Assembly (NCBI GenBank): GCA_023250585.1
Contig: JAHFAK010000001.1
Location: 232-64,231, forward strand
Direction: 5' to 3'
DNA: 64,000 bases
DNA from: Deltaproteobacteria bacterium
Lineage (GTDB): Bacteria; Bdellovibrionota_F; JAHFAK01
The position numbers and the translations under genes were made by a program. This document shows positions 3,153 through 41,863 of the stretch, one piece after another. The notes under the pieces are model-generated. The model did no database searches and was not told the DNA's origin. It worked only from the letters and a program-made list of their open reading frames with translations. Each line of letters opens with the position of its first letter. Position 1 is the stretch's first letter.

Positions 3153-3187
3153 GCAAGAAAATTGATAAGTCGAAATGTTTTGATTGA

Positions 3188-24540: not shown

Positions 24541-25464
24541 TCAAGAAACTTGTTTTTGTAGAATCAAATGAAGTCCATCTTGTTTTCGCTTTGCTCTCTC
24601 TAGCGCAATATCAATAACATCTTTTGCCGAAAACGAATTCTTATGAACTGGAATATTAATTGGCTTATAGTAATATCCTAATGCTCCTAACCACTCCAAA
24701 AGATTTTTTGCACTAGTACCAAATCTTTCTAAACCTGGTGGCCAAAATTCCATAATAATGGTCGGACTGCTTTTTTGCAAAAGTCTTTTTGCTCCTTCTA
24801 ATACCAAACCTTCTGCTCCTTGAATATTCATCTTGAGTACATCCAATTTCATAGTACCAACATGCTGATCAAAATAATCGTCAAGTCTTACTGAGTTGAC
24901 TGAATATTCTCTATACTCGTTTTCATCTCTTTCATTATCTTTACCGTGACTTTTGAGGGATGAAGATAAATTTTCTCGAGAAAGAGAACCTGCAGAAGTA
25001 AAATTGTTGTTTGCATATAAAGTTTGATAACCATTCGAGTTAGAAACTGCCATTTCTAATAGTGAAACGTTTTTATGAGTATTCGCCTCAACATTTTTCT
25101 TGAGGATTGCAAAACACTGAGGATCTGGTTCAAATGCATATACATGTCCTGTTTTACCCACTTGTTCAGCAGCTATTAGAGTGAGATGACCTATATTGGC
25201 ACCGATATCCGCTACAAACATGCCTGGTGAAATAGTCTTACTAAAATAATCGGTTATTGGCTTCACATGATCACCAAAAACAAGCAGACGGCGAGAAACA
25301 CCTAAATCAGTTGGAATAAGAAAAATTCTTTGCCCATGAAATTCCACTGATGGATTTTTTCCCAAGGTACGAATAAATATTAGATATGCCGAACTATAGA
25401 ATGAAAGAAACCCCGGGATTTTACCTATTCCCATTTTTTTAAGAAAACGAAAAAAATTTCTCAT
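24541..25464 (-). CDS. FkbM-family SAM-dependent methyltransferase
   Basis: MFVADIGANIGHLTLIAAEQ...VYAFEP is the Methyltransf_21/FkbM motif. Confidence 0.7.
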   Translation of the reverse strand: MRNFFRFLKKMGIGKIPGFLSFYSSAYLIFIRTLGKNPSVEFHGQRIFLIPTDLGVSRRLLVFGDHVKPITDYFSKTISPGMFVADIGANIGHLTLIAAEQVGKTGHVYAFEPDPQCFAILKKNVEANTHKNVSLLEMAVSNSNGYQTLYANNNFTSAGSLSRENLSSSLKSHGKDNERDENEYREYSVNSVRLDDYFDQHVGTMKLDVLKMNIQGAEGLVLEGAKRLLQKSSPTIIMEFWPPGLERFGTSAKNLLEWLGALGYYYKPINIPVHKNSFSAKDVIDIALERAKRKQDGLHLILQKQVS

Positions 25465-26849: not shown

Positions 26850-28395
26850 AAGGATCTTTAAAAATTTTATTAAACAACTTACTGATAAGCGCCTTAAGAG
26901 ATGCCTCCATACGAGACTCTTCTTTTTTTCCCATCACAATATTAAACAGGGGTTTGAAAAATCTTTGTGGACGTCTCACAAAGCTCACTGAATAAAAAAG
27001 CAGAAGACCAAAAATACGATACAAAGCTAGCTCTCTATGAGAAATATCATCCGACCATGATACTGATTTTGAAATATTTGAGGTTGTTGCTAAAGACCAG
27101 AAATACTCATCATGGTATTCGGGTAAACGTCCTGTAGCTCTTAAGTGATCATAGATTTCAGTTCCTGGATATGGAATATATCCTGAGATAGTTGTTTCAT
27201 GTACTCCCAACCATGCTATTTCTACTAAAAACTTCATTGTCTGCCATACTTCTCTATGCGTTTCTCCAGGAAAACCTAATATAGTATTACTCTTGATTAC
27301 CATGCCTTTTTTAAGACATCCTTTCATTGATTTTTTCATAGAATGAAGGTTCACCTTCTTTTTTATTCTCGCAAGTACTGTAGGCGACCCACTTTCTGGG
27401 GCATAATTTAAATTACGGCACCCTGATGTATAAAGAAGTTCTGCAACTTCTTCATCAATCGCTTCTGACCGTGTACCACTAGGCAGTTGCCAGGTAAATT
27501 GGTGTTTTCTTTTAAGAATAAGATTGCAAAATTCTACAATCCAATTTTTCTTAACAATTGCCGTGAGGTCATAAAAACTAAAATTTTCTGCTTTATACCG
27601 ATCAAGATACAATTCCATTTCTGATAAAACTTTTTCAGGTTTTCGTGCAACCCATCGGGTACTCCACATTTGAGGACTAGAACAAAAAGTACATTGATAC
27701 GGGCATCCACGTGTGGCAAGCATCGGCATATTTCGACCACGATTAACGCCGTAACCAAAGTTGTGGTCAAGATATTCTTCTAATCGAATAAGATCCCATG
27801 CAGGTAGGGGTATATCATCAATATCATGTACTCGAAGATTAAAGAGATATTTATCAACGGGACCGGAGCGATGTGGCTTTATAGGATTTGATTTTGTAAT
27901 AACAGCAGGAAGCCCTTCTCCGTTTTCACCTAAAGATAAAGCGCCTACAAGTCGAGTAAAATGCAACTCCCCCTCTCCTAATACACATGCATCGACTTCT
28001 TGAAAATTTTTTAAAATCCATGAAGCAGTAGCCGTTACATGTTCTCCCCCACAAATGATAGGCTTATGAGGGAATCGAAGCTTTAACTTTTTAATGACCT
28101 GATACGCAAGAGGCCACTCTACGGAGAACATAGCTGAAACACCAATGATATCGAAATTATCATCAACCCTTTCAACAATTTCATCAGGGGTAAGACCATG
28201 AATAATATGACGCCCATTATTAATAGGTGTCATTTGAAATATTGATTCTCCAACTGCATCGATAATTTTAACCTCATGTCCTGCTTCTCGTAAACTTGAT
28301 GCAATATACCCAAGCCCAAGTGGTGGACACGTGGATCGAGACTGAACAAGTCTCACAACAATCATTGGAGGACGAATTAAGATAACTCGACTCAT
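26827..28395 (-). CDS. B12-binding domain radical SAM enzyme, paralogue of 22901..24505
   Basis: RPPMIVVRLVQSRSTCPPLGLGYIASSL and ATRGCPYQCTFCSSPQMW. Collinear with the other copy over its whole length. Confidence 0.85.
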   Translation of the reverse strand: MSRVILIRPPMIVVRLVQSRSTCPPLGLGYIASSLREAGHEVKIIDAVGESIFQMTPINNGRHIIHGLTPDEIVERVDDNFDIIGVSAMFSVEWPLAYQVIKKLKLRFPHKPIICGGEHVTATASWILKNFQEVDACVLGEGELHFTRLVGALSLGENGEGLPAVITKSNPIKPHRSGPVDKYLFNLRVHDIDDIPLPAWDLIRLEEYLDHNFGYGVNRGRNMPMLATRGCPYQCTFCSSPQMWSTRWVARKPEKVLSEMELYLDRYKAENFSFYDLTAIVKKNWIVEFCNLILKRKHQFTWQLPSGTRSEAIDEEVAELLYTSGCRNLNYAPESGSPTVLARIKKKVNLHSMKKSMKGCLKKGMVIKSNTILGFPGETHREVWQTMKFLVEIAWLGVHETTISGYIPYPGTEIYDHLRATGRLPEYHDEYFWSLATTSNISKSVSWSDDISHRELALYRIFGLLLFYSVSFVRRPQRFFKPLFNIVMGKKEESRMEASLKALISKLFNKIFKDPFEKVFLR

Positions 28396-29147
28396 TAGTC
28401 AGTTCTTCCTATATGATACCCGCCATCGACGGGTAATGTTACGCCCGTAATCCACGAAGAATCATCGGAAAGTAAAAAAAGTACTGCGCGAGCAATATCA
28501 TGTATTGAACCAAATCTTCCTAAAGCATGACTCTTTTTCAGTGCTTCATGTTCGTCATCTGATAATGCTGATAGATAATTTTCTACCAATGGAGTTTCTA
28601 CATACCCTGGGCAGACACAATTTGCTCTAATATTATGTTTAGCATAGTCAATAGCAATTGATTGAGTCAGCCCAACAAGACCCCATTTACTTGACATATA
28701 CGATGCACGTTCTTTCAGTGCACAAATTCCTGCAATAGATGAAATATTGACAATACTTCCCGCGCCTACCGAAATCATATGCTCAAGCGCTGCCTTAGAA
28801 CAATTAAACACTCCGGTGAGATTTGTCGCAATGGTTTTTTCCCAATCATCAAAACTGGTATTTCCAAGAACATTACGGGATGGGTTAATACCGGCGTTAT
28901 TCACAAGTCCAGTGACAGCATGCCCCTCTTTTTTAAGATGTTCAAAAAGTTTTGTAACATCTTCGGGAATGCTTATATCACATACATTGGTAATAAGTGA
29001 CGAAGATCTTTTGAGAGAAGCTAATTTTTCTTCTGTACGACCAATAGCATAAACAGTTGCTCCTTCATGTACAAGATCATAGGTAATTTGTTTTCCAATA
29101 CCTGAACCTGCACCGGTAACGACGATCGTTTTTTCTTTAAATCGCAT
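28395..29147 (-). CDS. short-chain dehydrogenase/reductase (classical SDR)
   Basis: TIVVTGAGSGIGK, NNAGIN, and the YMSSKWG catalytic YxxxK. Confidence 0.85.
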   Translation of the reverse strand: MRFKEKTIVVTGAGSGIGKQITYDLVHEGATVYAIGRTEEKLASLKRSSSLITNVCDISIPEDVTKLFEHLKKEGHAVTGLVNNAGINPSRNVLGNTSFDDWEKTIATNLTGVFNCSKAALEHMISVGAGSIVNISSIAGICALKERASYMSSKWGLVGLTQSIAIDYAKHNIRANCVCPGYVETPLVENYLSALSDDEHEALKKSHALGRFGSIHDIARAVLFLLSDDSSWITGVTLPVDGGYHIGRTD

Positions 29148-29149
29148 AA

Positions 29150-30274
29150 CTATACATCTTGTTTCAATTTATTCCAATGATCAATCCAAATATTATCATG
29201 AGTATCAAAAAAACGCGTTAGGAAATTTTTTACTCTATCTGGTTCTACCATATAAAAAGGTGAACCATTATTGTTATAGGGTAGTGCAATATCTTTAATA
29301 AGAACAAGACCTATTTTTTCGCTGGATGATTTTTTATCTCCTCGCATAAGCGCTGTTATAGCTTCTGCATCGATTCCTTGCTGAACTCGTCTATTAAGAG
29401 CTAAACGATTCATAAGTATAACAACATAATCTTTGAGTTCTGATGAAATTATACTCTGCTCTACACTAAAAGTAAGAGCCATCATGATACCAGCAGCGAT
29501 CGCATCTCCATGGCTTACCTCGTAATGAGAATATTTTTCAAGCGCATGGCCAAACGTATGCCCTAGATTGCTTGCTAATGGATCTTGTCGTCGTATCTTA
29601 ATTCTCACATTAATTGTTTCTCGTACAATTTCTATCATTACATCATCCGATGGTACTTCTTTATAGGCCATGAGAAGATCAAGAAGACGATGCGATCCGA
29701 GTAATCCATATTTAAATACCTCAGAAAATCCTTGTCTCATTTGATACGGTGAATTCGTATGAAGTAAGGTTACATTGTTGTATACAACACGAGGAAGATA
29801 GAGTGTGCCTAATAAATTTTTTGAGTACTCTGTATTAATACACGTTTTACCTGCAGTCGCTGCATCAGCTTGACCAATTAACGTCGTAGGAATCATCATA
29901 AGAGGAATGCCTCTCATATATACTGAAGCAAGAAATGAAATCGCATCAAGAATTGTTCCACCCCCAAGAGCAACAATTAAATCATCTCGCGAACATTTTA
30001 AATGAGCAAGATGATCAACTAAGAAAGCAAATGATCTAAGATCTTTTGATGCTTCTTCTGCTTTTAGAAATATAATCCCTTCTAAAGGAAAAAAATTGTG
30101 CAATTTTTTTTGTAAAGCGGGTAACCACGTATTTCTCAAAGCTTCGTCACAAAAGACAATCACTTTTCCGGGTTGTTTTGTAAGAATATTAAGCGTAAGT
30201 TCATCAAAGCTTTTTGTTTTATCAAGAATAAAACGCACTGTTTGTGTCTCAGTAACTGATTCTTCAAAAATCAT
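29150..30274 (-). CDS. 3-dehydroquinate-synthase-like sugar-phosphate cyclase superfamily enzyme
   Basis: GGGTILDAISFLASVYMRGIPLMMIPTTLIGQADAATAGKTCIN and HTFGHALE match the DHQS nucleotide and metal sites. Confidence 0.8.
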   Translation of the reverse strand: MIFEESVTETQTVRFILDKTKSFDELTLNILTKQPGKVIVFCDEALRNTWLPALQKKLHNFFPLEGIIFLKAEEASKDLRSFAFLVDHLAHLKCSRDDLIVALGGGTILDAISFLASVYMRGIPLMMIPTTLIGQADAATAGKTCINTEYSKNLLGTLYLPRVVYNNVTLLHTNSPYQMRQGFSEVFKYGLLGSHRLLDLLMAYKEVPSDDVMIEIVRETINVRIKIRRQDPLASNLGHTFGHALEKYSHYEVSHGDAIAAGIMMALTFSVEQSIISSELKDYVVILMNRLALNRRVQQGIDAEAITALMRGDKKSSSEKIGLVLIKDIALPYNNNGSPFYMVEPDRVKNFLTRFFDTHDNIWIDHWNKLKQDV

Positions 30275-30288
30275 ATTTTCTCATGATG

Positions 30289-30999
30289 CTATAAGAGAAA
30301 GAGTTTTTCTCTTTCTCTTTGTTGTTCTATTTCTTTGATTTTATTGACTCGTGTAACAAAAGCATCAAAATTGCCTTGTATAAGATTATGTTCGCCGAGT
30401 ATCGAAAAAAGACGAGGCATTGTACTCATGTATATAGGGTCCATTTTTAAAAAATCAGCAGCAAAGTGGTAGCCTAATTGTTGAGGTTCCATGCATGAAA
30501 AAAAATCTTTTAAAATTTTTTTTTCATGCTCACACGCAAGTGAAAGACGTACATCATAGTAAGAATCTACCCACGGTGGAGTAAAATCAACATAAGCCAG
30601 TTCGACTCCATTCCATACAAAGTTTTTAATGTGAGGATCAAAATTCAATCGAGCGTTTTGTGCTTTACGGAGAATACTAAAAATCCTGTCGAGAACTTTT
30701 TTTTCCGGGAGCAGATCATTAGGTGCTATTTTCCTCATATATTGTAAAATATTTGGACCTTTAAACTCACATATATAGATGAGACGTTCTTGATTTGCTT
30801 CTGATTTATATATTTCTGGTACGGGAATTCCAGCACTTGTTAGTTTTGTAACGTAGTGAATAATAGCTTTCTCAAGATCACACCAGTGAATTCCCAAGTG
30901 AACATTTAGGCGAGTTTCCTTACGGATACATTCACGACCTTCAAAATGTACTGTAGAAAATTTAGAATCTTGAACGCTATAACGATTTAATTCTTCCAT
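30289..30999 (-). CDS. hypothetical protein with weak protein-kinase-like / phosphotransferase fold features
   Basis: RLNFDPHIKNFVW resembles the HxD-x4-N catalytic loop, and AYVDFTPP a DFG-like metal loop, of APH/choline-kinase/Kdo-kinase enzymes. Weak. Confidence 0.3.
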   Translation of the reverse strand: MEELNRYSVQDSKFSTVHFEGRECIRKETRLNVHLGIHWCDLEKAIIHYVTKLTSAGIPVPEIYKSEANQERLIYICEFKGPNILQYMRKIAPNDLLPEKKVLDRIFSILRKAQNARLNFDPHIKNFVWNGVELAYVDFTPPWVDSYYDVRLSLACEHEKKILKDFFSCMEPQQLGYHFAADFLKMDPIYMSTMPRLFSILGEHNLIQGNFDAFVTRVNKIKEIEQQREREKLFLL

Positions 31000-32036
31000 T
31001 GCCCAATATATCTTACTAAATCAACAACACGTGATGAATATCCCCATTCGTTGTCATACCACAAAACCATTTTCAGATAATTGTGTTCATTCATATAAAT
31101 CCATCGGTGATCTATGACAGCTGAATAGCTTGATCCAGTAAAGTCTGTAGAAACAAGCGCTTCTTTATTATTAAAGAATATATTCCATTTCTGATTTTTT
31201 TCTTCCTCTTCAAATACTGATTGAATGGTATCAACATTGACTTTTTCCTCGAGCTCAACGGAAAGATCAGCAGAAGAAACAATCATTGTTGGAATACGAT
31301 ATGACATAGATAAAAATTTTCCCGTAAGGTTTTTAAGTACTTTACATGAAGCAGAAATTGCAGATGTTGTTTTTGGTATTAATGAATTCGTACTTCCTCT
31401 TCCTAACGCATAATGATCATGAATTTTCCCCGGCGTAGCATAAGAAATCGAAGGACCATCAAGGAGATTCTGATAATTTAACCATGGATGTAGGGTAGTC
31501 AAAAATCCATGTTTAATTCCAAATTTTTTATCGAGCACATGTGCTGTCGGTGAAAAAGCATTGGCATCGCAGATACTACTTGAAATAAGAAAATGACGTT
31601 CTGGCTTGAAATCATCATGATTAACTCCTAAGATAATTGCAATATCAACTTCATCTTCTTGAGGAGCATTCGTAACAATGCAATGACGAACTCCTTGTGT
31701 TTTCAGTTTCCGTGCATTGATAAGATTCTGCTTAACCCCAGAAGAATCAATGACAATATCAACTCCTTCTTTATTCCATGGAACATCAGAAATATTTTCA
31801 TGACGATACACGCGCAATTTTTTTTCGTTTCCTATAGTAATTGTATCTCCTGTTACTGCAATACTCTTCTCAAGACGTCCATATGTTGAATCATACTTAA
31901 TAAGATAAGCAATATTATTAATATCTGGGTTAATATCGTTGATACAAACAATATCAATATCAGGATGCTCAAGCGTAATACGTAATACCGCTCGCCCTAT
32001 TCTTCCTAGACCGTTAATACCTACTTTAAAACTCAT
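30987..32036 (-). CDS. glyceraldehyde-3-phosphate-dehydrogenase-family dehydrogenase (divergent)
   Basis: Start refined to the internal ATG (MSFKVGINGLGRIGRAV). C-terminal WYDNEWGYS GAPDH signature. Active-site region SSSICDANAFSP retains Cys but is atypical. Confidence 0.8.
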   Translation of the reverse strand: MSFKVGINGLGRIGRAVLRITLEHPDIDIVCINDINPDINNIAYLIKYDSTYGRLEKSIAVTGDTITIGNEKKLRVYRHENISDVPWNKEGVDIVIDSSGVKQNLINARKLKTQGVRHCIVTNAPQEDEVDIAIILGVNHDDFKPERHFLISSSICDANAFSPTAHVLDKKFGIKHGFLTTLHPWLNYQNLLDGPSISYATPGKIHDHYALGRGSTNSLIPKTTSAISASCKVLKNLTGKFLSMSYRIPTMIVSSADLSVELEEKVNVDTIQSVFEEEEKNQKWNIFFNNKEALVSTDFTGSSYSAVIDHRWIYMNEHNYLKMVLWYDNEWGYSSRVVDLVRYIGQWKN

Positions 32037-32062
32037 ATTAATTCCTTTCGTAAAGAGCATTA

Positions 32063-32764
32063 TTATTGTATATTCTTTGATCGAGGATAATTCAAGAAAC
32101 TCATGCTGAGCCACAGTATTGATGAAATTCCATAAAAAATAGTTACAACAAATGAAATAACTTTTAGATCCCACCCACAAACAATAGTGATTCCTAAAAA
32201 AAGAGGAAGTAAAGCTAACATAAACCGTACTGAAAGAAATGAATATTTGTTATAGTATAAATGAACAAATGTTCCTATAAAACCTTGAGAAGGCATTTCT
32301 TTTACTGCCAGTGGAACAAAAATGATGAGCACTCCGCTTGAAAAAGCTGCGAGTAGAATTAAGTAATAGCTCTCTGTATAAATCCCAAAAAGGACAATGA
32401 GCATCAACCGAGCAAGATTACAGCCCAAATCATCAAGAAGGTGCCCAAGCATACTACAACTGTTTGAAGCTTTAGCTATAGGACCATCAGCAAAATCAAC
32501 AAAGATAAGAAAATAAATGCAAAAGATTCCAATAATGGGAAGCAGAACTACTCCATTCATAGCTGTCACAAGAAAACAATATCCAATGAACACAAGAAAA
32601 ATTGCAGAAACATCAAGCACGTTGGCGGTTATCCCAATTTTGTAAGCAAAAAAAGCAAACTGCAGTGCAATCCATTTCACAAGATTAGTCGTAAAATCAA
32701 ATTGTTTTCTGTCAAAAACTGATCTTTCAGGAAACTGTTTAGCTGTAAATTGAGTAAATGTCAT
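32063..32764 (-). CDS. CDP-alcohol phosphatidyltransferase-family membrane enzyme
   Basis: DFADGPIAKASNSCSMLGHLLDDLGCNLAR contains the D-G-x2-A-R/K...G-x3-D-x3-D signature. 6 TM helices. Confidence 0.7.
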   Translation of the reverse strand: MTFTQFTAKQFPERSVFDRKQFDFTTNLVKWIALQFAFFAYKIGITANVLDVSAIFLVFIGYCFLVTAMNGVVLLPIIGIFCIYFLIFVDFADGPIAKASNSCSMLGHLLDDLGCNLARLMLIVLFGIYTESYYLILLAAFSSGVLIIFVPLAVKEMPSQGFIGTFVHLYYNKYSFLSVRFMLALLPLFLGITIVCGWDLKVISFVVTIFYGISSILWLSMSFLNYPRSKNIQ

Positions 32765-33993
32765 AATGTAGTTCCTTCCATGAGTTCAAGAAAACGATCT
32801 GCTGAAATTGACCATGAATAATGCTTTTCGGTAATCGAACGGATATCTTCTGCTCGCATAACATACCTTTCTCGATTTCGACAAAAATCCTCTATTTTAT
32901 TACCTATGCTTTGAGGATCACATCCATTAATAATCCACTCTTTGTTATAGCGCTTAAGAATTTCTGGAGTTGCCCCATTGTCAGTGCCAAGCACAACAAG
33001 TCCTGAGAGTAATGCTTCAACAGTTGCAAGACCAAATCCTTCAGCACCTTGCGTAGGAAGAATAAAAGCATCCGCAACTTGATAGTAATGAGCTAACTCT
33101 ATTTCAGAAATTCCACTGACAAGGCGGACAGAATCTTTTAGAGAAAGTGAGTCTATGTACTGACGAATTTTCGTTTCCATCACACCTCGTCCAACAATTA
33201 TTATAAAAAATGAAACTCCTTTTTTTTTGAGCCCTGCAAGGGCTTCGACAAGTTTATCAACTCCTGTCCGAGGTTTCAAACCACGTGCTGTTATAAAAAG
33301 AATCTGCTCTAACGGAAGATTAAGTTCCTTACGAAGTTTTATCTTTAATGCATTATTAGTAATCGGAGTATACAGTTTTTCATCTGCTCCACCTGGAACA
33401 ATTTTAATCTTATCTTTAACTCCATTTCGGCCAATTGAAATACAACGATCACGTGCATACTCACTGTGAACCAAAACAAGATCTGCTTTGCTAATAACTG
33501 AAATAGCAATGCGATCGAAAAAATGTCCAATAATCTGTACTACTGGATTTTTTGGATAATTATATAAAAGTTCCGAATAAACATCACTATGAAAATCATA
33601 TATAATTTTTGCACGAGGCCACCATCGTTTTGGATTAAAACCTATCATCCACCATGGATTATGAACCCACACAACATCTATATTTTCATACTGCGATGCC
33701 ATCTTCTTCTGAGCACTATAGGATTGTACTGCAGTAACAAGAGGCCATAACATATGAGTGAGATCGCCTCTTTTAGGAATAGAAACTCGGAAATAGTGCA
33801 TATTTTCGACTATTTCATATGAAGAATATTTATGACTGTATTTCCGGGTAAGTATAATAACTTCATGGTTTCGATATGCTAATTCTCGTGAAATATTGTA
33901 TACAAGCTTAGGTAAGCCGCTATGGCGATCAGGATAAATTCCGGGTGTAAGAACAAGTATCTTCATTCTAGTTATTTTTTTTATGCCCAACAA
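32761..33993 (-). CDS. GT4-family glycosyltransferase (GT-B, retaining)
   Basis: C-terminal PTQGAEGFGLATVEALLSGLVVLGTDNGATPEIL is the EX7E region of Glycos_transf_1. Confidence 0.85.
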   Translation of the reverse strand: MLGIKKITRMKILVLTPGIYPDRHSGLPKLVYNISRELAYRNHEVIILTRKYSHKYSSYEIVENMHYFRVSIPKRGDLTHMLWPLVTAVQSYSAQKKMASQYENIDVVWVHNPWWMIGFNPKRWWPRAKIIYDFHSDVYSELLYNYPKNPVVQIIGHFFDRIAISVISKADLVLVHSEYARDRCISIGRNGVKDKIKIVPGGADEKLYTPITNNALKIKLRKELNLPLEQILFITARGLKPRTGVDKLVEALAGLKKKGVSFFIIIVGRGVMETKIRQYIDSLSLKDSVRLVSGISEIELAHYYQVADAFILPTQGAEGFGLATVEALLSGLVVLGTDNGATPEILKRYNKEWIINGCDPQSIGNKIEDFCRNRERYVMRAEDIRSITEKHYSWSISADRFLELMEGTTL

Positions 33994-35665
33994 AACGGTA
34001 ACTCAATAAAAGTATGCTCACCCATAGTAATAAAATCAATGAGGAAACAGTGAACTTTGTCTCTACCAACCCACAACCGCCGATAGAATCAACGTTCGAG
34101 AATATTGAAAGTCTCTTTATAGAACAGTTGACTTTACAACTTCCTTTAGAACTATTGCCATTAGCCTCTCCATCATCACATTCTTCTTCTCCCGCTTCTA
34201 TAAAACCATCTCCACATATAGCTAACTTACAAGTATTCAAGCATGAATCAGTATTCTCTGCATTACCATCATCACATTCTTCTTCTCCCGCTTCTATAAA
34301 ACCATCTCCACATATAGCTAACTTACAAGTATTCAAGCATGAATCAGTATTCTCTGCATTACCATCATCACATTCTTCACCCACAGCGAGTTTTCCATCA
34401 CTACATCCAAGTTCTATAGCTCCAATATCACATCTGACGCTTTGATCCCCATCACCATCAATTGGCCTAATAAAACCACGCTGATCAAAAGAAGGACAAC
34501 TCACTGGATCTCCTTTATCAATTGCAGGACTTCCGGGCCGAATCACATGAGTATCGGTGGGCCCTCCATTGTTATCAAGCGAACCTAGTTTCACATCCAG
34601 TTCATAATTCGGATAATATCCATAGATATCAGTAGTATTTGAAGGTTTAGGAAGATCATAGGTATTAACACCATTTATCTTACATCCCATGGTTACTTTG
34701 ATGATGTTGTATCCCTCTGAAACAATTGGGCCTCGACAATCATGCGGCGGACTCCCCTGATCAGGACTTGCATCCTTATTCTCCGCTATAATCGTATTCT
34801 TTACTACTATAGTTAATACATCTGTTGGAAAATCACTTGTATAAATTCCCCACGTAAAATCACCTATGGCTATACCACCTGCATGACCACTATCATTTTT
34901 ATCGCTATCGGCAGTATTACTAGAAATTGTACTATTTACTATGGTTGTCTCAGCGTCTAAGGACATTGCCGCACCACTCTCGATTGTAGTATTTCCGCTA
35001 AACGTAGAACTTTCTACAATCATTATTCCCGAAGCATTCCATACTCCACCGCCATAGTCTGCTTTATTACCAGAAATAGTACTCCGATCTATATGTAATA
35101 TCCCATTATTCGTATTTAATATTCCTCCTCCTGTTCCTAGTCCCTCTGATATACCTGTTAAAGAATGAACTGCTACAGGAAAAGTTCCTGAAAGGGTACT
35201 ATTATTTTTGATAGTACAATAGAAAAGAGATAAATTTCCTTCATTGCGAACACCTGCTCCACCCTTATCAACATCCATTCCATTTTGGATTGTCACATCT
35301 CGAATTGTTACTGTTGCACCTGAAGCAACAAAGAAAATTCGTGGAGGAGTATTTCCTCCATCAATGAAAGTACTTCGTGTACCCGATCCCTGAAGTGTAA
35401 TATCTTTATTAATGGTGATCCCATTTTCAATATACGTCCCCTCAGCAATAATAACAACATCAGCATCCTGTGACGCTTCTATCGCTTCTTTAATTGAACA
35501 ATAGGGATTACCATGTATATCATTACAATGGGAATCATTTTTATTAACATTTCGTGTGATACCAGCCCACGTATGAGAAATAAACACTGGACTACTCATT
35601 AGAATTACCATAGCTGTAAGGGAAATATATTTTATTTGGTAGATCTTAATTTTTATACTCAACAT
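33968..35665 (-). CDS. secreted right-handed parallel beta-helix protein with three C-terminal cysteine-rich (Myxococcus-type CGDG...CDDGN) repeats and a C-terminal hydrophobic anchor
   Basis: Signal peptide MLSIKIKIYQIKYISLTAMVILMSSPVFISHTWAG. PbH1-like repeats (NNSTLSG, ISGNKADYGGGVWNASG, FSGNTTIESGAAM, ISSNTADSD). 3x CGDGFIEAGEEECDDGNAENTDSCLNTCKLAI. Ends ...LILLLWVSILLLSYRFVGHKKNN. Confidence 0.7.
   Translation of the reverse strand: MLSIKIKIYQIKYISLTAMVILMSSPVFISHTWAGITRNVNKNDSHCNDIHGNPYCSIKEAIEASQDADVVIIAEGTYIENGITINKDITLQGSGTRSTFIDGGNTPPRIFFVASGATVTIRDVTIQNGMDVDKGGAGVRNEGNLSLFYCTIKNNSTLSGTFPVAVHSLTGISEGLGTGGGILNTNNGILHIDRSTISGNKADYGGGVWNASGIMIVESSTFSGNTTIESGAAMSLDAETTIVNSTISSNTADSDKNDSGHAGGIAIGDFTWGIYTSDFPTDVLTIVVKNTIIAENKDASPDQGSPPHDCRGPIVSEGYNIIKVTMGCKINGVNTYDLPKPSNTTDIYGYYPNYELDVKLGSLDNNGGPTDTHVIRPGSPAIDKGDPVSCPSFDQRGFIRPIDGDGDQSVRCDIGAIELGCSDGKLAVGEECDDGNAENTDSCLNTCKLAICGDGFIEAGEEECDDGNAENTDSCLNTCKLAICGDGFIEAGEEECDDGEANGNSSKGSCKVNCSIKRLSIFSNVDSIGGCGLVETKFTVSSLILLLWVSILLLSYRFVGHKKNN
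34171..34400. repeat. tandem direct repeat, unit 96 bp: two perfect copies (34171-34266, 34267-34362) plus a diverged partial third copy; encodes the 32-aa cysteine-rich repeats of the beta-helix protein
   Basis: Identical 96-nt strings (catcatcacattcttcttctcccgcttctataaaaccatctccacatatagctaacttacaagtattcaagcatgaatcagtattctctgcattac) at 34171 and 34267. Confidence 0.9.
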
Positions 35666-35668
35666 TCT

Positions 35669-36262
35669 TTATACAAGAAAAGAAATTTCTTGAGCTATTC
35701 TATGAGTATCACGTTGACCAATGATACGATTATAAACTAAAGATACTTTCTTGGCAGTTTTTGTCTCAAGATCATAACTAAGACAACCAACAATTGGTTT
35801 ATAATAAACATGAAGCGTACAGGCACGACGATTGTTAATTGCAGGATTCTCTAATTGATGAATCCCGATCTCATCATCAATATAAGAAACGTCTCCCCTA
35901 TTATACGTTTCTTGAAGTAATGGTGTAAGGTCGCCTTTAAAGTCAATGGATTTTACATAAACATAATTTTTACTCTCTATAGTCCCTCGTAGAACAGTCA
36001 TACAACAATGCTGCCCTTCATGATCATGAATTGGTGTTTTTTGCCCTGGTTCCCAACATAGAATAAGTATTTCAAAAAATTCATTTTTAAAAATAAGATT
36101 CCGGGTATAATGAGATTGATGAAAATAATATAAATTTTCCAAGGAACATTCAAAAAGTTTATATTGATGCATGAGTTCTAAAATTCTTTCATTTTCTATA
36201 GCTAAGGATGGAGAGAATAATCGAGAAATTTTCTGAATAAATTCTCTCAGTTGAGTTAGCAT
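35669..36262 (-). CDS. cysteine-dioxygenase-type-I-like cupin (thiol dioxygenase family)
   Basis: ILILCWEPGQKTPIHDHEGQHCCMTVLRG closely parallels mammalian CDO [29 protein letters not shown] (the 3-His iron site HxH...H). Confidence 0.7.
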   Translation of the reverse strand: MLTQLREFIQKISRLFSPSLAIENERILELMHQYKLFECSLENLYYFHQSHYTRNLIFKNEFFEILILCWEPGQKTPIHDHEGQHCCMTVLRGTIESKNYVYVKSIDFKGDLTPLLQETYNRGDVSYIDDEIGIHQLENPAINNRRACTLHVYYKPIVGCLSYDLETKTAKKVSLVYNRIIGQRDTHRIAQEISFLV

Positions 36263-36373
36263 ACAATATTTTCTACAATATTATAGGAAAATTATTGTTC
36301 ATTTTTTATAGCTTTAATTAAAATATCATCAGCGAACAAAGAAATTTTTCTATAACCAAATCCGATCTCCTAG

Positions 36374-38353
36374 TTAATACATTCGGGGAAGAGCATTAAT
36401 AGTTTTTAGCACTTCTTTATGATTAACACGTATCACATCGAGATATTCTAATATAGACTCTTTGCGAGGATAATTTTCTACTTCTATAAGCTTTAATGCA
36501 TCTGACCGATCGATGTGATGTTCACGTATTTGATTTGAACGAAAACAATCATTTTCGCTAAAACCGCATATCGTTCTATACACATAGTTATAGAAAGCAG
36601 CGGTTCCATCACCTATACGCCATGTAGTACTTGTATCTTTCGCTATCTCCCAATTATATTCATTAATTAAGATATCATTTATAATTTTTTCATTCCATGG
36701 AACATATTTATATAAATAAACATGGTCTTGCCGAATAAAATAATAACAAAGATAAGCCCAAAAAGTATCGATGATAGAATTATTAAGATACCGAGGATTA
36801 AGAAGATATTGCTTCATATAGTAATAGAGAATCTTAATCTTATTAAAGTTAGAAATAGTTATATGTCGTCTACCTTGAGACAGATCTTTGACATATCCAA
36901 TATTATTAATTCCTGAAAAACCTGCTTTAAAGCCTACATGCTCTAAGAAATTTTGACAAAAGATTAAGAGCTGTATTCCCGTATCTTTTTTTATCTTGTT
37001 CGCATAATAGAAAAATTGTTTATCTCCTGCCATCAATAATGGGATCATTCCAAGAACTGGCTGATGAATCCAGGCATTAATATTTTTTCTGATATTATCC
37101 CTCTTTTTTTTGATATCGGCTGAAACAAGAATATGCTCAATACCAAGTTTTCCACAGACTCTAGCTTGATTTCGTCTGCCAATATCGGTAATTATCCCCC
37201 AATCATATGAATAGGCAATGGGATTCATACCAAATTCTTTTTTAATAAGATGCAGACCATAACTGCTGTCGCGTCCACCGCTAAAGGCAACAATGCAATC
37301 TGGATTACCGTTATTTTGGCGATGCTCATCTAAAATTTGAAGGAACTTGTCCTTTCCCTGTAATTTGATATTTTTGTAAGAATGACAGTAATTACAAACT
37401 CCTTTCTCATCAAAGCTAATGAAAGGCATAGTTTCTGTAAGTATACAGATGGAACAACGCTTTAAATGGTAATTTTGAGGATAAAGCCATAGATTTTCAT
37501 TATCATTGAACTCCGTATTTTCTACTGCATTTTTAAAAGCATTCCCATTCTTTTGAGAAAATATGCGAGATTGACATTTATTAGAGTTATCTAACAAAAA
37601 ATTCTCTCTATGAAGAGTATCAAGGTTCATGATAATTGCCTGATGAGCACCTACATGAAAAATTTCTAATTTATTTTCAAAAGATTTTAATATCCCACAA
37701 GACTTAATTCGTTTTAGCATTGAGTATTCAGATGCAAAAATGAAGATTTCTTGGTTTGAATCAGCCATATAATAGAGAGATCCATTATTCGTAGCTAGAA
37801 TTAAATTTTTGTTTATACTATCTATCAAAGCAGTAGAAACAGTGCCTTCTATTTCACTATACGTTAAACTAAGTGATTGCGCATAAGAATGATTTCTACA
37901 TAAATGAGAAAAAATTTTCAGAAAGATTTCTGTATCTATGGTGTGTTTTTTTTCTAAAAACGAGTATTTATCCCATAGCATATCATCATTGACAATAATT
38001 CCATTATGAATACAGTAAAAAGAATGTTCTTCAAGGGGTTGATTATTATCTTGATGGATACTGCTCCCATCCGTAACTAATCGTGTATGGCCAATAACGC
38101 AGCTTGGGTGTATATTATCTGTCTTTTTACTGCCTATATTAAATAATTCTTTAAACTCTCGACTCTTAATAAACACAGAGGCCTTTTCTCTAGATTTTTT
38201 AATTGTTACTTTATTATCTTTAAAGATTGCAATTCCGGCAGCATCTTTCCCGCGAGACTGAGAGTATTGAAACAACTTTTGAGTGGTTTCTTGGAAACTA
38301 TCACAAGGAATAATATCTGCTTCTCTTAGTGCTATACCAAATATACCACACAT
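36374..38353 (-). CDS. fusion: class-II (Ntn) glutamine amidotransferase domain + zinc-ribbon/PP-loop N-acetyl-sugar amidotransferase domain (WbuX/WbpG/PseA-like)
   Basis: N-terminal MCGIFGIA (Cys2 nucleophile), GHTRLVTDG, HNGIIVND as in AsnB/PurF. Mid-protein CSICILTETMPFISFDEKGVCNYC zinc ribbon followed by PP-loop IVAFSGGRDSS, as in TIGR03573-type amidotransferases. Confidence 0.75.
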   Translation of the reverse strand: MCGIFGIALREADIIPCDSFQETTQKLFQYSQSRGKDAAGIAIFKDNKVTIKKSREKASVFIKSREFKELFNIGSKKTDNIHPSCVIGHTRLVTDGSSIHQDNNQPLEEHSFYCIHNGIIVNDDMLWDKYSFLEKKHTIDTEIFLKIFSHLCRNHSYAQSLSLTYSEIEGTVSTALIDSINKNLILATNNGSLYYMADSNQEIFIFASEYSMLKRIKSCGILKSFENKLEIFHVGAHQAIIMNLDTLHRENFLLDNSNKCQSRIFSQKNGNAFKNAVENTEFNDNENLWLYPQNYHLKRCSICILTETMPFISFDEKGVCNYCHSYKNIKLQGKDKFLQILDEHRQNNGNPDCIVAFSGGRDSSYGLHLIKKEFGMNPIAYSYDWGIITDIGRRNQARVCGKLGIEHILVSADIKKKRDNIRKNINAWIHQPVLGMIPLLMAGDKQFFYYANKIKKDTGIQLLIFCQNFLEHVGFKAGFSGINNIGYVKDLSQGRRHITISNFNKIKILYYYMKQYLLNPRYLNNSIIDTFWAYLCYYFIRQDHVYLYKYVPWNEKIINDILINEYNWEIAKDTSTTWRIGDGTAAFYNYVYRTICGFSENDCFRSNQIREHHIDRSDALKLIEVENYPRKESILEYLDVIRVNHKEVLKTINALPRMY

Positions 38354-38373
38354 TCGTAACTACCTCCAATCAT

Positions 38374-39564
38374 CTATTTCCCATGAAAGTAGGTGACTTT
38401 TTTTCTCTTACCATCCCAATGAATATCGGGAATGAGAACCTCTTTCTTTGCTTCTATACGATCTCGATATTTAATAAGATCCTGTAACATGATATGAATC
38501 TCTGCTTCCATATCTTTTGTTGGTTGATAGCCTAGTTCTAGTAGCTTTTTATGATCGGGTTTATAGTAATGTTCTTCCGCTTCATACCGTGGATTTTCAA
38601 CATTCTTAACTTCTACTTTTAATCCCAGATCTCTTCCTACACTTTTTACTTTTAAGGCCAATTGTGTAATATCATATACTTCTTCAAACTGATTGAAGAC
38701 TCGATATTCTCCTTGTGCAGGAGGATTTTCAATAACAAGCGTTAAACACTGGATTGAATCTTTCAGAGGCAAGAAACCCCGTTTTTGATGACCCTTTCCA
38801 AATGGAGAAAGTGGTTGATCAACTACAGCTTGGCAACAGAAACGATTGATAGCTGTTCCAAAACACTGGTCAAAATCAAGTCTCGTCAGCAAACGATCAT
38901 CTTCGTTCATTTCAAGAATACGCGAACCATATACTATTCCTTGCATAATATCAGAAGAACGAAGTCCCCAAATACGACAGGCAAGCATGACATTATTGCT
39001 ATCATGTACTTTACTTTGATGGTACCAACTACCCGCTTGCCGAGGAAAAGGAAGATTTTCTTTTCGACCACGATATTCAATCTCAAAAAACCCTTCAGGA
39101 ATATCTATGTTTGGTGTGCCGTACTCCCCCATAGTTCCCAGCTTTATAAGATGACCTTGTGGTGTTATATTCTTCATAGCATAGAGGACATTAAGAGTAC
39201 CTACAATATTGTTTGTCTGCGTCCACGCAGCATGTTTAGCATCAATCATACTGTAAGGAGCAGATGGATTTTCGCCTAAATGGACAATGGCTTCAGGTTT
39301 GAAATCTCTGAATATCTGTTCCACAAAATCGTAATGAATAAGATCCCCCTTAGAAAAAAAGAGTTCCTTTTTAAAGTGATCCTCAAAAGCTTTCAGACGT
39401 TCTGGCATTTCGTGAATAGGGAGAGCAGAATGGGAATCCATTTCACTCACACATTCTCGACGTGAAAAATTATCTATTCCTCCTATGGTATAACCTTTCG
39501 AAGCAAGACGTAGTGCAAGAGACCAACCTAAATATCCATCAATACCTAAAATAAGAACTCTCAT
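38374..39564 (-). CDS. sqdB: UDP-sulfoquinovose synthase
   Basis: Collinear with plant SQD1 and cyanobacterial SqdB: MRVLILGIDGYLGWSLALRL (SQD1 VMVIGGDGYCGWATALHL), GENPSAPYSMID, KLGTMGEYGTPNIDIPEG, YHQSKVHDS, FGTAINRFCCQAVVDQPL, RVFNQF, NPRYEAEEHYY. Confidence 0.9.
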   Translation of the reverse strand: MRVLILGIDGYLGWSLALRLASKGYTIGGIDNFSRRECVSEMDSHSALPIHEMPERLKAFEDHFKKELFFSKGDLIHYDFVEQIFRDFKPEAIVHLGENPSAPYSMIDAKHAAWTQTNNIVGTLNVLYAMKNITPQGHLIKLGTMGEYGTPNIDIPEGFFEIEYRGRKENLPFPRQAGSWYHQSKVHDSNNVMLACRIWGLRSSDIMQGIVYGSRILEMNEDDRLLTRLDFDQCFGTAINRFCCQAVVDQPLSPFGKGHQKRGFLPLKDSIQCLTLVIENPPAQGEYRVFNQFEEVYDITQLALKVKSVGRDLGLKVEVKNVENPRYEAEEHYYKPDHKKLLELGYQPTKDMEAEIHIMLQDLIKYRDRIEAKKEVLIPDIHWDGKRKKVTYFHGK

Positions 39565-39576
39565 GAAAAACTCCTA

Positions 39577-40899
39577 TCACAATTGAACTTGATTACCTTT
39601 GGTTTTAAGAAAATGAGCTTGAAAATATCTCCATACATATGTCATCCCTGCCCCAGCATACAAAGCTAAAAATGGCTCCAAAGGAAGCCGTGCTCGCATA
39701 CTCGATCTTATCAATGTAAATATAAAAACGAGTGAGATACAATAACCCCATATGACTAAATGGCTCCTAAACATTTTTCGTGCTCTTATAAGCCCAACAA
39801 GAGCTAACAACAAAATAGGTCCATAGGTCACTATACTCATTACTTTAAAAGGTGATGCCGTAAAAGAACTTTCTGAAATAGTTTCTTCCGGATAAAACCT
39901 CCACAAATTTAGAAATCGTTCAAGACAAAGGACAAGGAATTGTAGAGGATGAGATCTAATAAAATCTGTTGACTTAGCAGTAAAAATTCTATTTTTTGCC
40001 AAATCATTTTCATCTTTTAGTTCTTCTTCTATTCTAGGTAAAATATTGTTAGTAAACTGTAGAAAGTTTTCCTTTCTATTAAATCCAGATGAAAATTCAT
40101 TATTATGCATATATAAAACTTTTCCTACATTGCTTTTTGTAGTCAAAAACTCCCCAAGAACAAAATAATTACGTATACCCCAGAGACATACCGTTGAATA
40201 AAAAATAAGCATAAATAGCACTGTTTTTGTTACCCTCTTTATTAATGACTCGTGTCTTAAGATATACATTACGATGAAGAAAGCAAGAATGATAAAAGGG
40301 CTTAAGATTGAAATTGTAAAATTGGCCAATCCAAAAAGTAATGCGGATAACCAAAGAAAAGACGGTTTCGTACATGCCAGTGAGAAGCTCAAAATTCCTA
40401 ACACCACAAGAAGAGTAAAAAATGTTTCTGGAAGAATAAGAACAGATGAAAAAATAAGAATAGGATAACAAGCAACAATAAACATAGCACATAGAGCACT
40501 CGTTTTTCCAAAAATATGGCGCGTTAGAAAATATACGCAAGGCATCATACTTGAATTAAGGCATGCTAGGATAATGCGTGTCCATAGAATATCTCCATCT
40601 CCTAAATGAAAATAAATTGAAAGTACATAGGGAAAAAATGGCATGATATTAGTTTTACTCCCCCACCCTTTACCTTCAAATAATCGAAGGGCTGCTGGGT
40701 AATAATCGTTTATTTCATCAGGCCATATAAAACGATCACCTGTAACAAAAACAGCAACAATTATACGAAGGGCACCTCCGATGAAACATATAAAAAGTGG
40801 AATAATCACACTATTTGAGTTATTTCCACCAACTCTTGATAATAGTTTTTCCAAAGTTAAATCCATAATTCCAATCAGTGCCTTTTTTTGTAATACCAT
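39577..40899 (-). CDS. GT-C fold membrane glycosyltransferase (ArnT/PMT-like, GT83/GT39-type)
   Basis: About 11 TM helices. First periplasmic-loop motif FIWPDEINDYYPAALRL (the DE motif of GT-C enzymes). Follows a membrane GT2. Start may be further downstream; 80-nt overlap with the upstream gene as drawn. Confidence 0.55.
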   Translation of the reverse strand: MVLQKKALIGIMDLTLEKLLSRVGGNNSNSVIIPLFICFIGGALRIIVAVFVTGDRFIWPDEINDYYPAALRLFEGKGWGSKTNIMPFFPYVLSIYFHLGDGDILWTRIILACLNSSMMPCVYFLTRHIFGKTSALCAMFIVACYPILIFSSVLILPETFFTLLVVLGILSFSLACTKPSFLWLSALLFGLANFTISILSPFIILAFFIVMYILRHESLIKRVTKTVLFMLIFYSTVCLWGIRNYFVLGEFLTTKSNVGKVLYMHNNEFSSGFNRKENFLQFTNNILPRIEEELKDENDLAKNRIFTAKSTDFIRSHPLQFLVLCLERFLNLWRFYPEETISESSFTASPFKVMSIVTYGPILLLALVGLIRARKMFRSHLVIWGYCISLVFIFTLIRSSMRARLPLEPFLALYAGAGMTYVWRYFQAHFLKTKGNQVQL

Positions 40900-41863
40900 A
40901 TTTTCTTGTATGAATTATTATAGAAACCTCTCCTATACGAAGGCCTTTTTTAGCAGACTCAAGTATTACCTCTGCAGATTGGAATTGATCTTCTTTTAGT
41001 TGAAGACACTTAAGAGCATTAACATTAAAAGCCTTGAGGCCGCTCGAACAATCAGTCAATCGTACATTGGCAAGAAAGTTAATAATTCTTGTAAAAAATC
41101 GAATCCCTATCTTTCTTAATGTACTCCCTCTATAAGCTCCCATCATTCGGGATCCAATCACGAGATCCTTTTCTCCGTTTATAATTGGAGCTACTAATTT
41201 TTCAATTTCAAGAGGAGAATGTTGAAGATCTGCATCCATGGTGACTCCAATAGGAATATTATAGTTAACTAAAACATCGTACCCTAGTCTCGATGCAGCT
41301 CCTTGTCCACGATTAATCTTATTTTTGACAACGACAGCTCCACTCTCACAACTCACTCCCGCAGTGTTATCAGTACTTCCATCATCAATGACAAGAATTC
41401 CTACTGATCTTCTTTGAATCGTGCGAGGTATCTTACTAAGGAGTTCTTGTAAGTTTGCTTCTTCATTGAATGCAGGAATGATAATGACAATTTCCTTATT
41501 AAAAAGTTCCTTGTCCAAAACATTCTTAGCTTCTTCATATCCCAAACGACGAAGGAGAAGATCAATTTGATGTCTCATATCATCAAACAATGATTTTGTA
41601 TAGAAGAAAAAAATCCATATGACAAAATTTGAAGCTATAAGCAAAGCTAATATTCGTCCTCTCTGATGCATTGCCAATTGCAACATTTCTGCAATTGCAT
41701 TGAGAATATTTGGGTTAGAACTTACTAAAAGGAGTGACACACTGAAACACGCGGAAAAAACAAAATTCATCCTTCTCCATTTAGGTCCTCTATAGAAAAT
41801 AAAACTTAAGACAAGACCTATTAGACCTAAACTAAAACCAAATATACGTAGACTTGAAAACAT
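40820..41863 (-). CDS. membrane-anchored GT2 glycosyltransferase (polyprenyl-phosphate sugar synthase, ArnC/DPM1/GtrB-like)
   Basis: Three N-terminal TM helices, then IVIIIPAFNEEANLQELLSKI and GILVIDDGSTDNT GT2 motifs. Confidence 0.75.
   Translation of the reverse strand: MFSSLRIFGFSLGLIGLVLSFIFYRGPKWRRMNFVFSACFSVSLLLVSSNPNILNAIAEMLQLAMHQRGRILALLIASNFVIWIFFFYTKSLFDDMRHQIDLLLRRLGYEEAKNVLDKELFNKEIVIIIPAFNEEANLQELLSKIPRTIQRRSVGILVIDDGSTDNTAGVSCESGAVVVKNKINRGQGAASRLGYDVLVNYNIPIGVTMDADLQHSPLEIEKLVAPIINGEKDLVIGSRMMGAYRGSTLRKIGIRFFTRIINFLANVRLTDCSSGLKAFNVNALKCLQLKEDQFQSAEVILESAKKGLRIGEVSIIIHTRKYGITKKGTDWNYGFNFGKTIIKSWWK

Follow-up and report, generated by a model that had tools for sequence, protein, structure and literature searches.

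The window analysed here is a 64,000-nucleotide stretch of contig JAHFAK010000001.1 (positions 232 to 64,231 of the forward strand) from an assembly labelled Deltaproteobacteria bacterium, and the subject of this report is a single open reading frame (ORF) on its minus strand, at 33968-35665, which encodes 565 amino acids (aa) and ends in a stop codon at 33968-33970. The product is 100% identical to P0248, a protein of the 88,053-bp NCBI metagenome-assembled genome (MAG) contig that contains the window, and it combines a predicted signal peptide, a beta-helix, a choice-of-anchor Q domain, three cysteine-rich modules and a cysteine-containing C-terminal tail. Within the cysteine-rich region lies a perfect tandem DNA repeat: a single stalk module was duplicated in frame very recently, and the repeat is still recombining among near-clonal populations. 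The best reading of the gene product is that it is probably a surface-tethered glycan-binding, and possibly glycan-processing, protein.

The tandem tract occupies 34170-34378 on the minus strand, where Tandem Repeats Finder reported a period of 96, 2.2 copies and 100% identity over 209 nt, and it is the sole array scoring at least 80 in the window. It consists of unit 1 (34283-34378), unit 2 (34187-34282) and a 17-nt partial third copy (34170-34186), bearing out the perfect 96-bp repeat noted in a preliminary description of this DNA made from the letters alone. Each 96-nt unit corresponds exactly to one 32-aa module, and the tract starts on a codon boundary, at residue 430. After the two identical units on the coding strand, the 17 nt GAAGAATGTGATGATGG repeat the start of the unit; this 17-mer codes for the EECDDG motif of successive modules, and the longest exact repeat in the tract measures 113 nt. 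The single-unit allele described below already holds two such 17-nt direct repeats, 96 nt apart, and so offers a substrate for slippage or unequal exchange between the EECDDG codons of adjacent modules, from which the duplication would have arisen. Corresponding modules in relatives of the protein are only 71-82% identical at the DNA level, so the perfect identity of the 96-nt units seen here marks a recent event. An antisense ORF at 34014-34445 (plus strand) was set aside as a likely by-product of the repeat codons.

Three assemblies of the locus carry three alleles of this tract, which differ in unit number and at a single polymorphic site, nucleotide 76 of the unit. In unit 2 this site is window position 34207 (minus strand), with its unit 1 equivalent at 34303, and the two states at 34207, G in the window and A in contig L017, specify Gly and Ser, respectively (CGDG against CGDS). 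The window and the NCBI contig have the allele [G][G]. Contig L017 (European Nucleotide Archive (ENA) ERZ27280021, 6,751 bp) is collinear with window 35139-28389, shows its sole mismatch at 34207, and is thus G in unit 1 and A in unit 2, or [G][A]. Contig L001 (ENA ERZ27276474, 11,776 bp) matches window 29684-41555 minus one 96-nt unit, and its sole unit has A at position 76, or [A]; over 11,776 nt it differs from the window by this insertion/deletion and this single-nucleotide polymorphism alone. Outside the tract, flanks of 6.7-11.8 kb are 100% identical across the three assemblies. One unit gives a protein of 533 aa with a two-module stalk, and two units give 565 aa and three modules. The preliminary description had suspected very recent duplication or ongoing recombination and had proposed a comparison of repeat number, and the finding of one unit against two, in three alleles with otherwise identical flanks, agrees with that suspicion. 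Its further suggestion of a phase- or length-variable module holds for length only: the unit is 32 codons long and the reading frame is kept in all three alleles, so that a phase-variable contingency gene is rejected. What is observed is the pattern of a length-variable tandem-repeat surface protein, in which in-frame, near-identical units differ in number between near-identical populations.

An assembly artefact was also considered and rejected, given that three alleles occur in three independent assemblies with otherwise identical flanks. The label 'k141_' in the contig names is taken here to mean a final MEGAHIT k of 141; the longest exact repeat of 113 nt is shorter than this. Collapse or expansion of a single underlying sequence during assembly cannot give rise to the three alleles seen. 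Contig L007, a k=31 Logan contig from run SRR14366783, ends at window position 34349, exactly 30 nt (k-1) into the tract. Reads that contain the duplication junction would break the contig at just this point, where a 30-mer first gains two left contexts, whereas the one-unit allele shares only 17 nt and would leave the k=31 graph unbroken. Exact sequence look-up recorded none of seven further hypothetical alleles with 0, 1, 2 or 3 units in various G/A combinations. The three alleles fit a series in which [G][G] gave [G][A] by a point change and then [A] by an unequal exchange 5' of position 76; alternatively, [G][A] may be the hub, with gene conversion yielding [G][G] and deletion yielding [A], and the direction is not decidable from the alleles.

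The protein in which this repeat lies starts with a predicted Sec signal peptide (35564-35665, minus strand, approximately aa 1-34), composed of a Lys-rich n-region and a hydrophobic core and ending in ...HTWA|G; the call was read from the sequence with the aid of hydropathy and a helix at residues 2-24 in the AlphaFold2 model. The right-handed parallel beta-helix follows (34661-35563, minus strand, approximately aa 35-335) and includes a CSLREA-like N-terminal cap motif, CSIKEAI (35480-35500, minus strand, aa 56-62). Model TIGR04214 (CSLREA) matches 10 of the 21 full-length relatives used for comparison; despite the CSIKEAI motif the target gives no match to it at E<=0.05. The AlphaFold2 model, built with the 21 aligned relatives, has a mean predicted local distance difference test score (pLDDT) of 74.9. 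The beta-helix at approximately aa 36-335 is mostly above 90 and adopts a three-dimensional right-handed helix of the pectin-lyase type, with scores of about 75 for the choice-of-anchor Q domain and about 65 for the cysteine-rich modules and with a terminal helix at 541-562. The beta-helix of the preliminary description therefore stands on the model and its fold matches, whereas the hidden Markov model (HMM) detection that it had named did not succeed: PF13229 (Beta_helix/PbH1) gives no match to the target at E<=1, and the only hit is Chlam_PMP with an E value of 0.41. Some relatives carry precomputed PF13229 matches.

The choice-of-anchor Q domain (34409-34597, minus strand, aa 357-419) scores 79.1 bits against NF041518, for which the cut-off is 25, over profile positions 1-57 of 58, and all 21 relatives match this model as well. 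It is followed by three DUF4215/TIGR02232 modules (34115-34405, minus strand, aa 421-517) with four Cys each, which match PF13948 (DUF4215) at 55 bits against a cut-off of 27 and TIGR02232 at 50.3 bits against 20.8, each in three stretches, confirming by HMM the 'Myxococcus-type' repeats that had been recognised by eye. TIGR02232 is also above its cut-off in 21/21 relatives, which carry between 2 and 12 modules. Of the 20 Cys in the mature protein, 12 belong to the three modules and one, C531, to the tail; the modules are predicted to form a disulfide-rich stalk.

The closest comparator of the protein is P0002, which is 48% identical to it and constitutes with it an orthogroup. Conservation between the two is uneven, with 21% identity in the signal peptide region and the best-conserved parts at aa 258-276 and 305-318. 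The first of these belongs to a conserved block at 34820-34894 (minus strand, aa 258-282; DSGHAGGIAIGDFTWGIYTSDFPTD) that is rich in Asp, His, Trp and Tyr, reaches 80-93% identity to P0002 in 15-aa windows and forms a low-pLDDT loop in the AlphaFold2 model. Within aa 258-276 a 15-aa loop (GDFTWGIYTSDFPTD) is inserted in the target and P0002 only, among the 21 relatives. The second block (34712-34753, minus strand, aa 305-318; SPPHDCRGPIVSEG) is 100% identical in P0002 and falls in the last coils of the helix. The aa 258-282 block is a candidate ligand site. The helix residues that are invariant throughout the family are structural Asn and Gly.

The C-terminal tail (33971-34081, minus strand, aa 529-565) opens with a GGCG signature, from which a 9-aa spacer leads to a hydrophobic helix; basic residues, RFVGHKKNN, close it. 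Cys531 is encoded at 34073-34075, and the hydrophobic helix, SSLILLLWVSILLLSY, spans aa 541-556 (33998-34045). Across the 21 full-length relatives C531 is invariant, G529, G530 and L533 are at least 90% conserved, and a G-C-x-[LI] signature is found without exception, followed in 14 of them by a spacer, a hydrophobic helix and basic residues. The hydrophobic tail noted earlier is thus present, but a tripartite sorting signal that contains a Cys, with a signature conserved across the family, describes it better. The other seven relatives (P0002, P0038, P0044, P0045, P0067, P0078 and P0083) end 4-27 residues past the Cys and have no transmembrane (TM) helix; their tails, such as GGCSLIR and GCNLITIH immediately before the stop, have a CAAX-like look, and the stop was verified in the DNA for P0002. 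These helix-less variants may hint at a CAAX-box-like minimal form. Choice-of-anchor Q proteins with alternative C-terminal anchors are accordingly represented here by Cys-type tails with and without a TM helix, and relatives that lack DUF4215 repeats (e.g., P0022, P0024 and P0031) have other C-terminal regions. No comparable tail was found on any other ORF of the window or of contig L010.

In its layout the tail follows that of MYXO-CTERM, with an invariant Cys, a TM helix free of charged and Pro residues, and a basic cluster that is Lys-rich and not Arg-rich. MYXO-CTERM proteins have an invariant Cys, undergo Cys-dependent cleavage by the CPBP protease MrtX and are displayed at the surface in a manner that depends on the type II secretion system (10.1101/2023.06.07.544157; PMC11980579), and the curated family is confined to Myxococcota and Bradymonadales. 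The corresponding model, TIGR03901, is short and lineage-sensitive according to its author. The host of the present protein is placed only loosely: PRPP synthetase from a contig of the same strain is 64-68% identical to that of MAGs labelled Deltaproteobacteria, Myxococcota and KSB3, and Sat/CysC had its best non-self matches, at 58-60% identity, scattered across many phyla. The tail studied here is classed as MYXO-CTERM-like in design and not as a member. A canonical GCGC...RRRR tail is seen in P0004, a DUF4215 protein of a Myxococcota MAG. GlyGly-CTERM (TIGR03501) was rejected as an assignment, as the model does not match and a 9-aa spacer with charged residues separates GGCG from the helix.

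The window as a whole is one minus-strand polysaccharide supercluster of 31-40% guanine-plus-cytosine (GC) content, with Wzx-type flippases, a Wzy_C protein, many glycosyltransferases, an initiating phosphotransferase and dTDP-rhamnose genes, together with two ATP-sulfurylase genes, a sulfotransferase and an LtaS/sulfatase-like protein. Upstream of the target lies a cysteine-dioxygenase-type cupin gene (35669-36262, minus strand), whose stop is 3 nt before the target ATG. Downstream lies a GT4 glycosyltransferase gene (32761-33993, minus strand), the TTG-start ORF of which shares 26 nt with the end of the target; in L001 and L017 the gene was called from an ATG, which corresponds to 33966, 1 nt past the target stop. 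No terminator was found between the target and its neighbours, and promoter and terminator scans were otherwise at background level. The O-antigen operon proposed in the preliminary description is thus upheld as an operon-like polysaccharide run (a 3-nt gap, an overlap or 1-nt gap, and no terminator), whereas its O-antigen nature is not established, the locus having no feature that separates O-antigen from capsule or extracellular polysaccharide (EPS). The presence of the sulfurylase and sulfotransferase genes suggests that the polysaccharide is sulfated, and the locus is a heteropolysaccharide cluster of the Wzx/Wzy type with a product that is probably sulfated.

P0002, which is encoded on the 58%-GC metagenomic contig L002, occupies the same slot as the target, with Wzx, sulfatase-like, GT2 and Wzy genes on one side and GT4, CDP-alcohol transferase, GAPDH-like and B12-radical SAM genes on the other. 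The GT4 partner position is kept in L002, the gene after P0002 starts 10 nt past its stop, and the neighbours in the window and in L002 are 41-76% identical. The module on the GT4 side (window 26827-33993, minus strand; L002 11912-17878) shares GT4, CDP-alcohol phosphatidyltransferase, GAPDH-like (73%), DUF6206-like and B12-radical SAM (76%) genes, with genes for a DHQ-synthase-like protein and an SDR in addition in the window. Its gene content looks suited to making a phospho-linked or cyclitol-type decoration of an unusual kind. The five genes next upstream of the target form a block (35669-41863, minus strand) that is absent from the otherwise syntenic L002; they encode the cupin, a 659-aa GATase/amidotransferase, an epimerase, a PMT_2 GT-C protein and a GT2 protein. 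With a cysteine dioxygenase encoded among glycan genes, the polymer may bear a sulfinate- or taurine-type substituent.

Several other genes of the window deserve mention. The two ATP-sulfurylase genes, one fused to APS kinase, and the sulfotransferase gene are located at 5114-6859, 59591-60511 and 60531-62723 (all minus strand). The last of these intervals encodes a 730-aa fusion of a pyruvate-kinase (PK) barrel (PF00224), PUA_2 and ATP-sulfurylase, the barrel being an unusual companion for a sulfate-activating domain among glycan genes, and in L002 a stand-alone 338-aa PK-barrel gene (2787-3803) adjoins the sulfatase-like gene. Two B12-binding radical SAM enzymes and a PhyH-dioxygenase/Rieske fusion (22901-24505, 25461-26849 and 26827-28395, all minus strand) point to C-methylation or other unusual sugar tailoring. 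A transketolase split into N and C halves as separate genes (8743-10562, minus strand) adjoins a PseC-like aminotransferase and the initiating phosphotransferase. Four ORFs of 431, 307, 310 and 517 aa, at 11320-12615 (plus strand), 13563-14486, 48523-49455 and 55813-57366 (minus strand), have no Pfam match; the 431-aa ORF, also without an NCBIfam match, is one of two long plus-strand ORFs that do not overlap a longer minus-strand ORF.

At E<=1e-3 the beta-helix/choice-of-anchor Q module has 49,877 representative proteins, and many of these are very large, adhesin-like and built of several modules, with up to 24 copies in one protein. Within this set, only P0001 and P0002 lie above 50% identity by exhaustive HMMER search, and scans of species genomes and Joint Genome Institute (JGI) metagenomes for orthologues gave only relatives of 27-36% identity. 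The orthogroup is tiny within a very large uncharacterised family.

We favour, with a confidence only slightly better than even, the reading that the product is a Sec-exported envelope protein that binds the polymer of its own locus and carries its head on a recombining stalk. The head would be the right-handed beta-helix capped by the choice-of-anchor Q domain, set on the short, presumably disulfide-rich DUF4215/TIGR02232 stalk and followed by the C-terminal tripartite signal, consisting of GGCG with its invariant Cys, a putative TM helix and a basic end predicted to be cytoplasmic. If MYXO-CTERM is a fair guide, the tail would anchor the precursor in the inner membrane; modification of the Cys and removal of the helix would then leave the protein tethered at the surface. 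The gene behaves as a fixed component of a Wzx/Wzy locus, and the head therefore most likely binds the polymer of that locus, which it might tether or organise at the surface as the adhesin CdrA does for Psl; the orthogroup-specific loop rich in Asp, His, Trp and Tyr could mediate such binding. Changes in the length of the stalk may then have a functional effect. The roles raised in the preliminary description, those of chain-length modulator, surface adhesin or glycan-processing enzyme, are candidates only.

A number of observations weigh against this reading. The synteny is known from one second genome alone, and distant members of the family (30-34% identity) are stand-alone genes outside polysaccharide loci. 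The nearest sequence and fold relatives of known function are enzymes, namely alginate epimerases and lyases, and glycan binding is pure inference. No sorting-tag model, whether TIGR03901 (MYXO-CTERM), GlyGly-CTERM or another, matches the tail of the target or those of the 21 relatives in NCBIfam searches with the 61-aa tail of the target at E<=10 and the relatives at E<=0.05, and no CPBP, rhombosortase or exosortase gene is present in the window; the short flanks covered beyond it likewise contain no CPBP protease gene. P0002 ends six residues past its Cys and has no TM helix, so helix-based membrane anchoring is not conserved within the orthogroup. Finally, the three assemblies, which were compared at the assembly level, may share a single study as their origin, and a mixture of alleles could be present within any of them.

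A serious, if unlikely, alternative is that the beta-helix is an enzyme for the locus polymer, such as a depolymerase or lyase, an epimerase or an esterase, which trims, modifies or releases it, with the stalk and tail merely positioning the catalytic part. The family profile does match the AlgE4 and AlgE6 mannuronan C5-epimerases (E values of 1e-7 and 3e-7), a PL6 alginate lyase (2e-6) and AlgG-type epimerases (4e-6); however, the alignment to AlgE4, AlgE6 and PL6 covers only the N-terminal cap (the CSLREA-type motif and 'GDTI.L.AGTY') and the first coils. The catalytic YG[FI]DPH[DE] motif, YGFDPHE in AlgE4, falls opposite a low-confidence stretch that is not conserved; DPH is absent from the target, and no lyase or epimerase catalytic motif was found in it by the motif and AlgE4 alignment check. 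Retention of the operon position in two very different genomes, and the abundance of Asp and His in the conserved loop specific to the orthogroup, would suit an enzyme, whereas the structural nature of the invariant helix residues and the many-fold repetition of the module in giant adhesin-like proteins would not. In fold comparisons the adhesins PfbA, SRRP, pertactin and RbtA match about as well as the alginate enzymes. Beta-helix enzymes encoded with their polymers have precedents in WceF (stewartan), VexL (Vi-type capsule) and RbmB (VPS) (PMC7949094, PMC6003464, PMC11637428), as well as in AlgG (alginate), but the known locus-encoded depolymerases are soluble and have neither a Cys-rich stalk nor a sorting tail.

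A more ambitious form of the preferred reading, that of a tethered polymer-binding protein, can be put forward only with considerable doubt. According to it, the G-G-C-[SG]-L tail would be an uncatalogued Cys-type signal, MYXO-CTERM-like and processed by a CAAX protease, in a low-GC uncultured lineage that falls outside the groups for which such tags have been curated; the beta-helix protein would be the dedicated surface-tethered partner of the sulfated Wzx/Wzy polysaccharide, and recombination, by changing the length of the stalk, would match the reach of the protein to how thick the glycan layer is.

Two other accounts are very improbable. In the first, the protein would be a glycan acceptor, a dedicated glycoprotein substrate of a protein-glycosylation branch of the locus, comparable to the S-layer and pilin genes that lie beside their glycosylation genes. 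The Wzy_C-family protein at 42878-44266 would then be PglL-like, and it shares an operon-like run with the PMT_2 GT-C protein at 39577-40899; the Wzy_C match, however, falls below the Pfam threshold (27.9 against 31.7 bits), and alongside Wzx flippases such a protein could equally be a polymerase, while the block at 35669-41863 that contains the PMT_2 gene is missing from L002, which retains the target. There are 11 N-x-S/T sequons in the mature protein, and its helix faces are rich in Ser and Thr, but the D/E-x-N-x-S/T rule is satisfied by two sequons only. In exosortase systems, proteins with C-terminal tags are genetically linked to EPS loci (PMC11980579), as an acceptor of this kind would be.

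The second, equally improbable account makes the protein a passenger, an ordinary surface protein of a large family that was carried along in a polysaccharide island, with no functional tie to the polymer and with a neutral repeat polymorphism; the size of the module family, the distant members standing alone in unrelated contexts, the synteny in one other genome only and the possibility that the whole cluster moved as one block between 35%-GC and 58%-GC genomes speak for it, but a neighbour identity of 41-76% leaves time enough for loss and yet the exact slot is kept, the 48% identity of the target to P0002 equals the rate at which the neighbours diverge, coupling to the flanking genes is tight, and the orthogroup has its own strongly conserved loop. 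A phage tailspike or depolymerase was rejected on the polysaccharide-operon context and on the lack of any PHROG match at E<=0.01, the likeness to tailspikes mentioned in the preliminary description being one of fold and not of sequence.

In-frame variation of repeats in the stalks of surface proteins is already well known, and the present case does not overturn current understanding. How a tandem repeat changes in nature can be read cleanly here, as the repeat and its polymorphic site are the sole differences over up to 11.8 kb between near-clonal uncultured populations. The parts most worth following are the Cys tail that no model describes and the conserved position in the polysaccharide locus. 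The G-C-x-L tail, matched by no current model, is a candidate addition to the catalogue of Cys-dependent sorting signals, and the conserved slot beside the GT4/CDP-alcohol transferase/GAPDH-like/B12-radical SAM module leads to the hypothesis that the protein binds or processes the polymer made there. To our knowledge, no role is known for any of the approximately 50,000 beta-helix/choice-of-anchor Q module proteins. If both the uncatalogued tag and the polymer partner proved true, they would give the first functional handle on the choice-of-anchor Q/CSLREA family.

Among known systems, choice-of-anchor Q/CSLREA proteins (NF041518, TIGR04214) with DUF4215/TIGR02232 repeats have the same domain order as the target, running from the signal peptide through a CSLREA-type cap, a PMP-like beta-helix, the choice-of-anchor Q domain and Cys-rich repeats to the G-C-x-L tail. 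The target differs from them in that it does not reach TIGR04214, has the 15-aa orthogroup loop and lies in a polysaccharide operon, unlike the other members examined. Rhombotarget A (RbtA; TIGR04212; PDB 9cdv/9cdu), which has been crystallised as a target for binder design (PMC12643943), carries a GlyGly-CTERM tail (rhombosortase) and has neither the Cys signature nor a DUF4215 stalk, and it was not found when the family sequence profile was run against the PDB. A closer likeness of design is offered by TraA of Myxococcus xanthus, a MYXO-CTERM protein that is polymorphic between strains and is built from a globular head, a Cys-rich tandem stalk proposed to be rigid and a tripartite Cys tail (PMC3325183, PMC11980579). 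The head of TraA is a PA14 domain and its repeats are TIGR04201, not TIGR02232, so that membership of the two stalks in the same repeat family is rejected and the likeness is one of architecture alone. The tail of the target is likewise distinct from MYXO-CTERM, with GGC[SG]L in place of the GCGC signature, a Lys-rich basic end and no match to the MYXO-CTERM HMM. WceF, VexL, RbmB and AlgG/AlgE share no catalytic motif with the target, and these soluble proteins are without stalk, choice-of-anchor Q domain and sorting tail.

The alpha C/Rib proteins of group B streptococci and the Als adhesins of Candida contain length-variable, in-frame, near-identical repeats that code for whole modules. Copy number in these proteins shifts by recombination or slippage between close strains, altering the reach of the surface protein. 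The target differs from them in having one or two units only, in the presumed disulfide-rich nature of its DUF4215 modules and in its uncultured, Gram-negative-type host. The likeness that bears on the proposed function is to CdrA of Pseudomonas aeruginosa, which is beta-helical. CdrA is a large cell-associated adhesin that binds Psl, the polysaccharide of its own cell, and ties it to the cell (PMC2847200, PMC7484184). It differs from the target in being a two-partner-secretion substrate that is retained by CdrB and released by LapG, and its gene lies outside the psl operon, whereas the target gene is embedded in the polysaccharide locus whose polymer it would bind.

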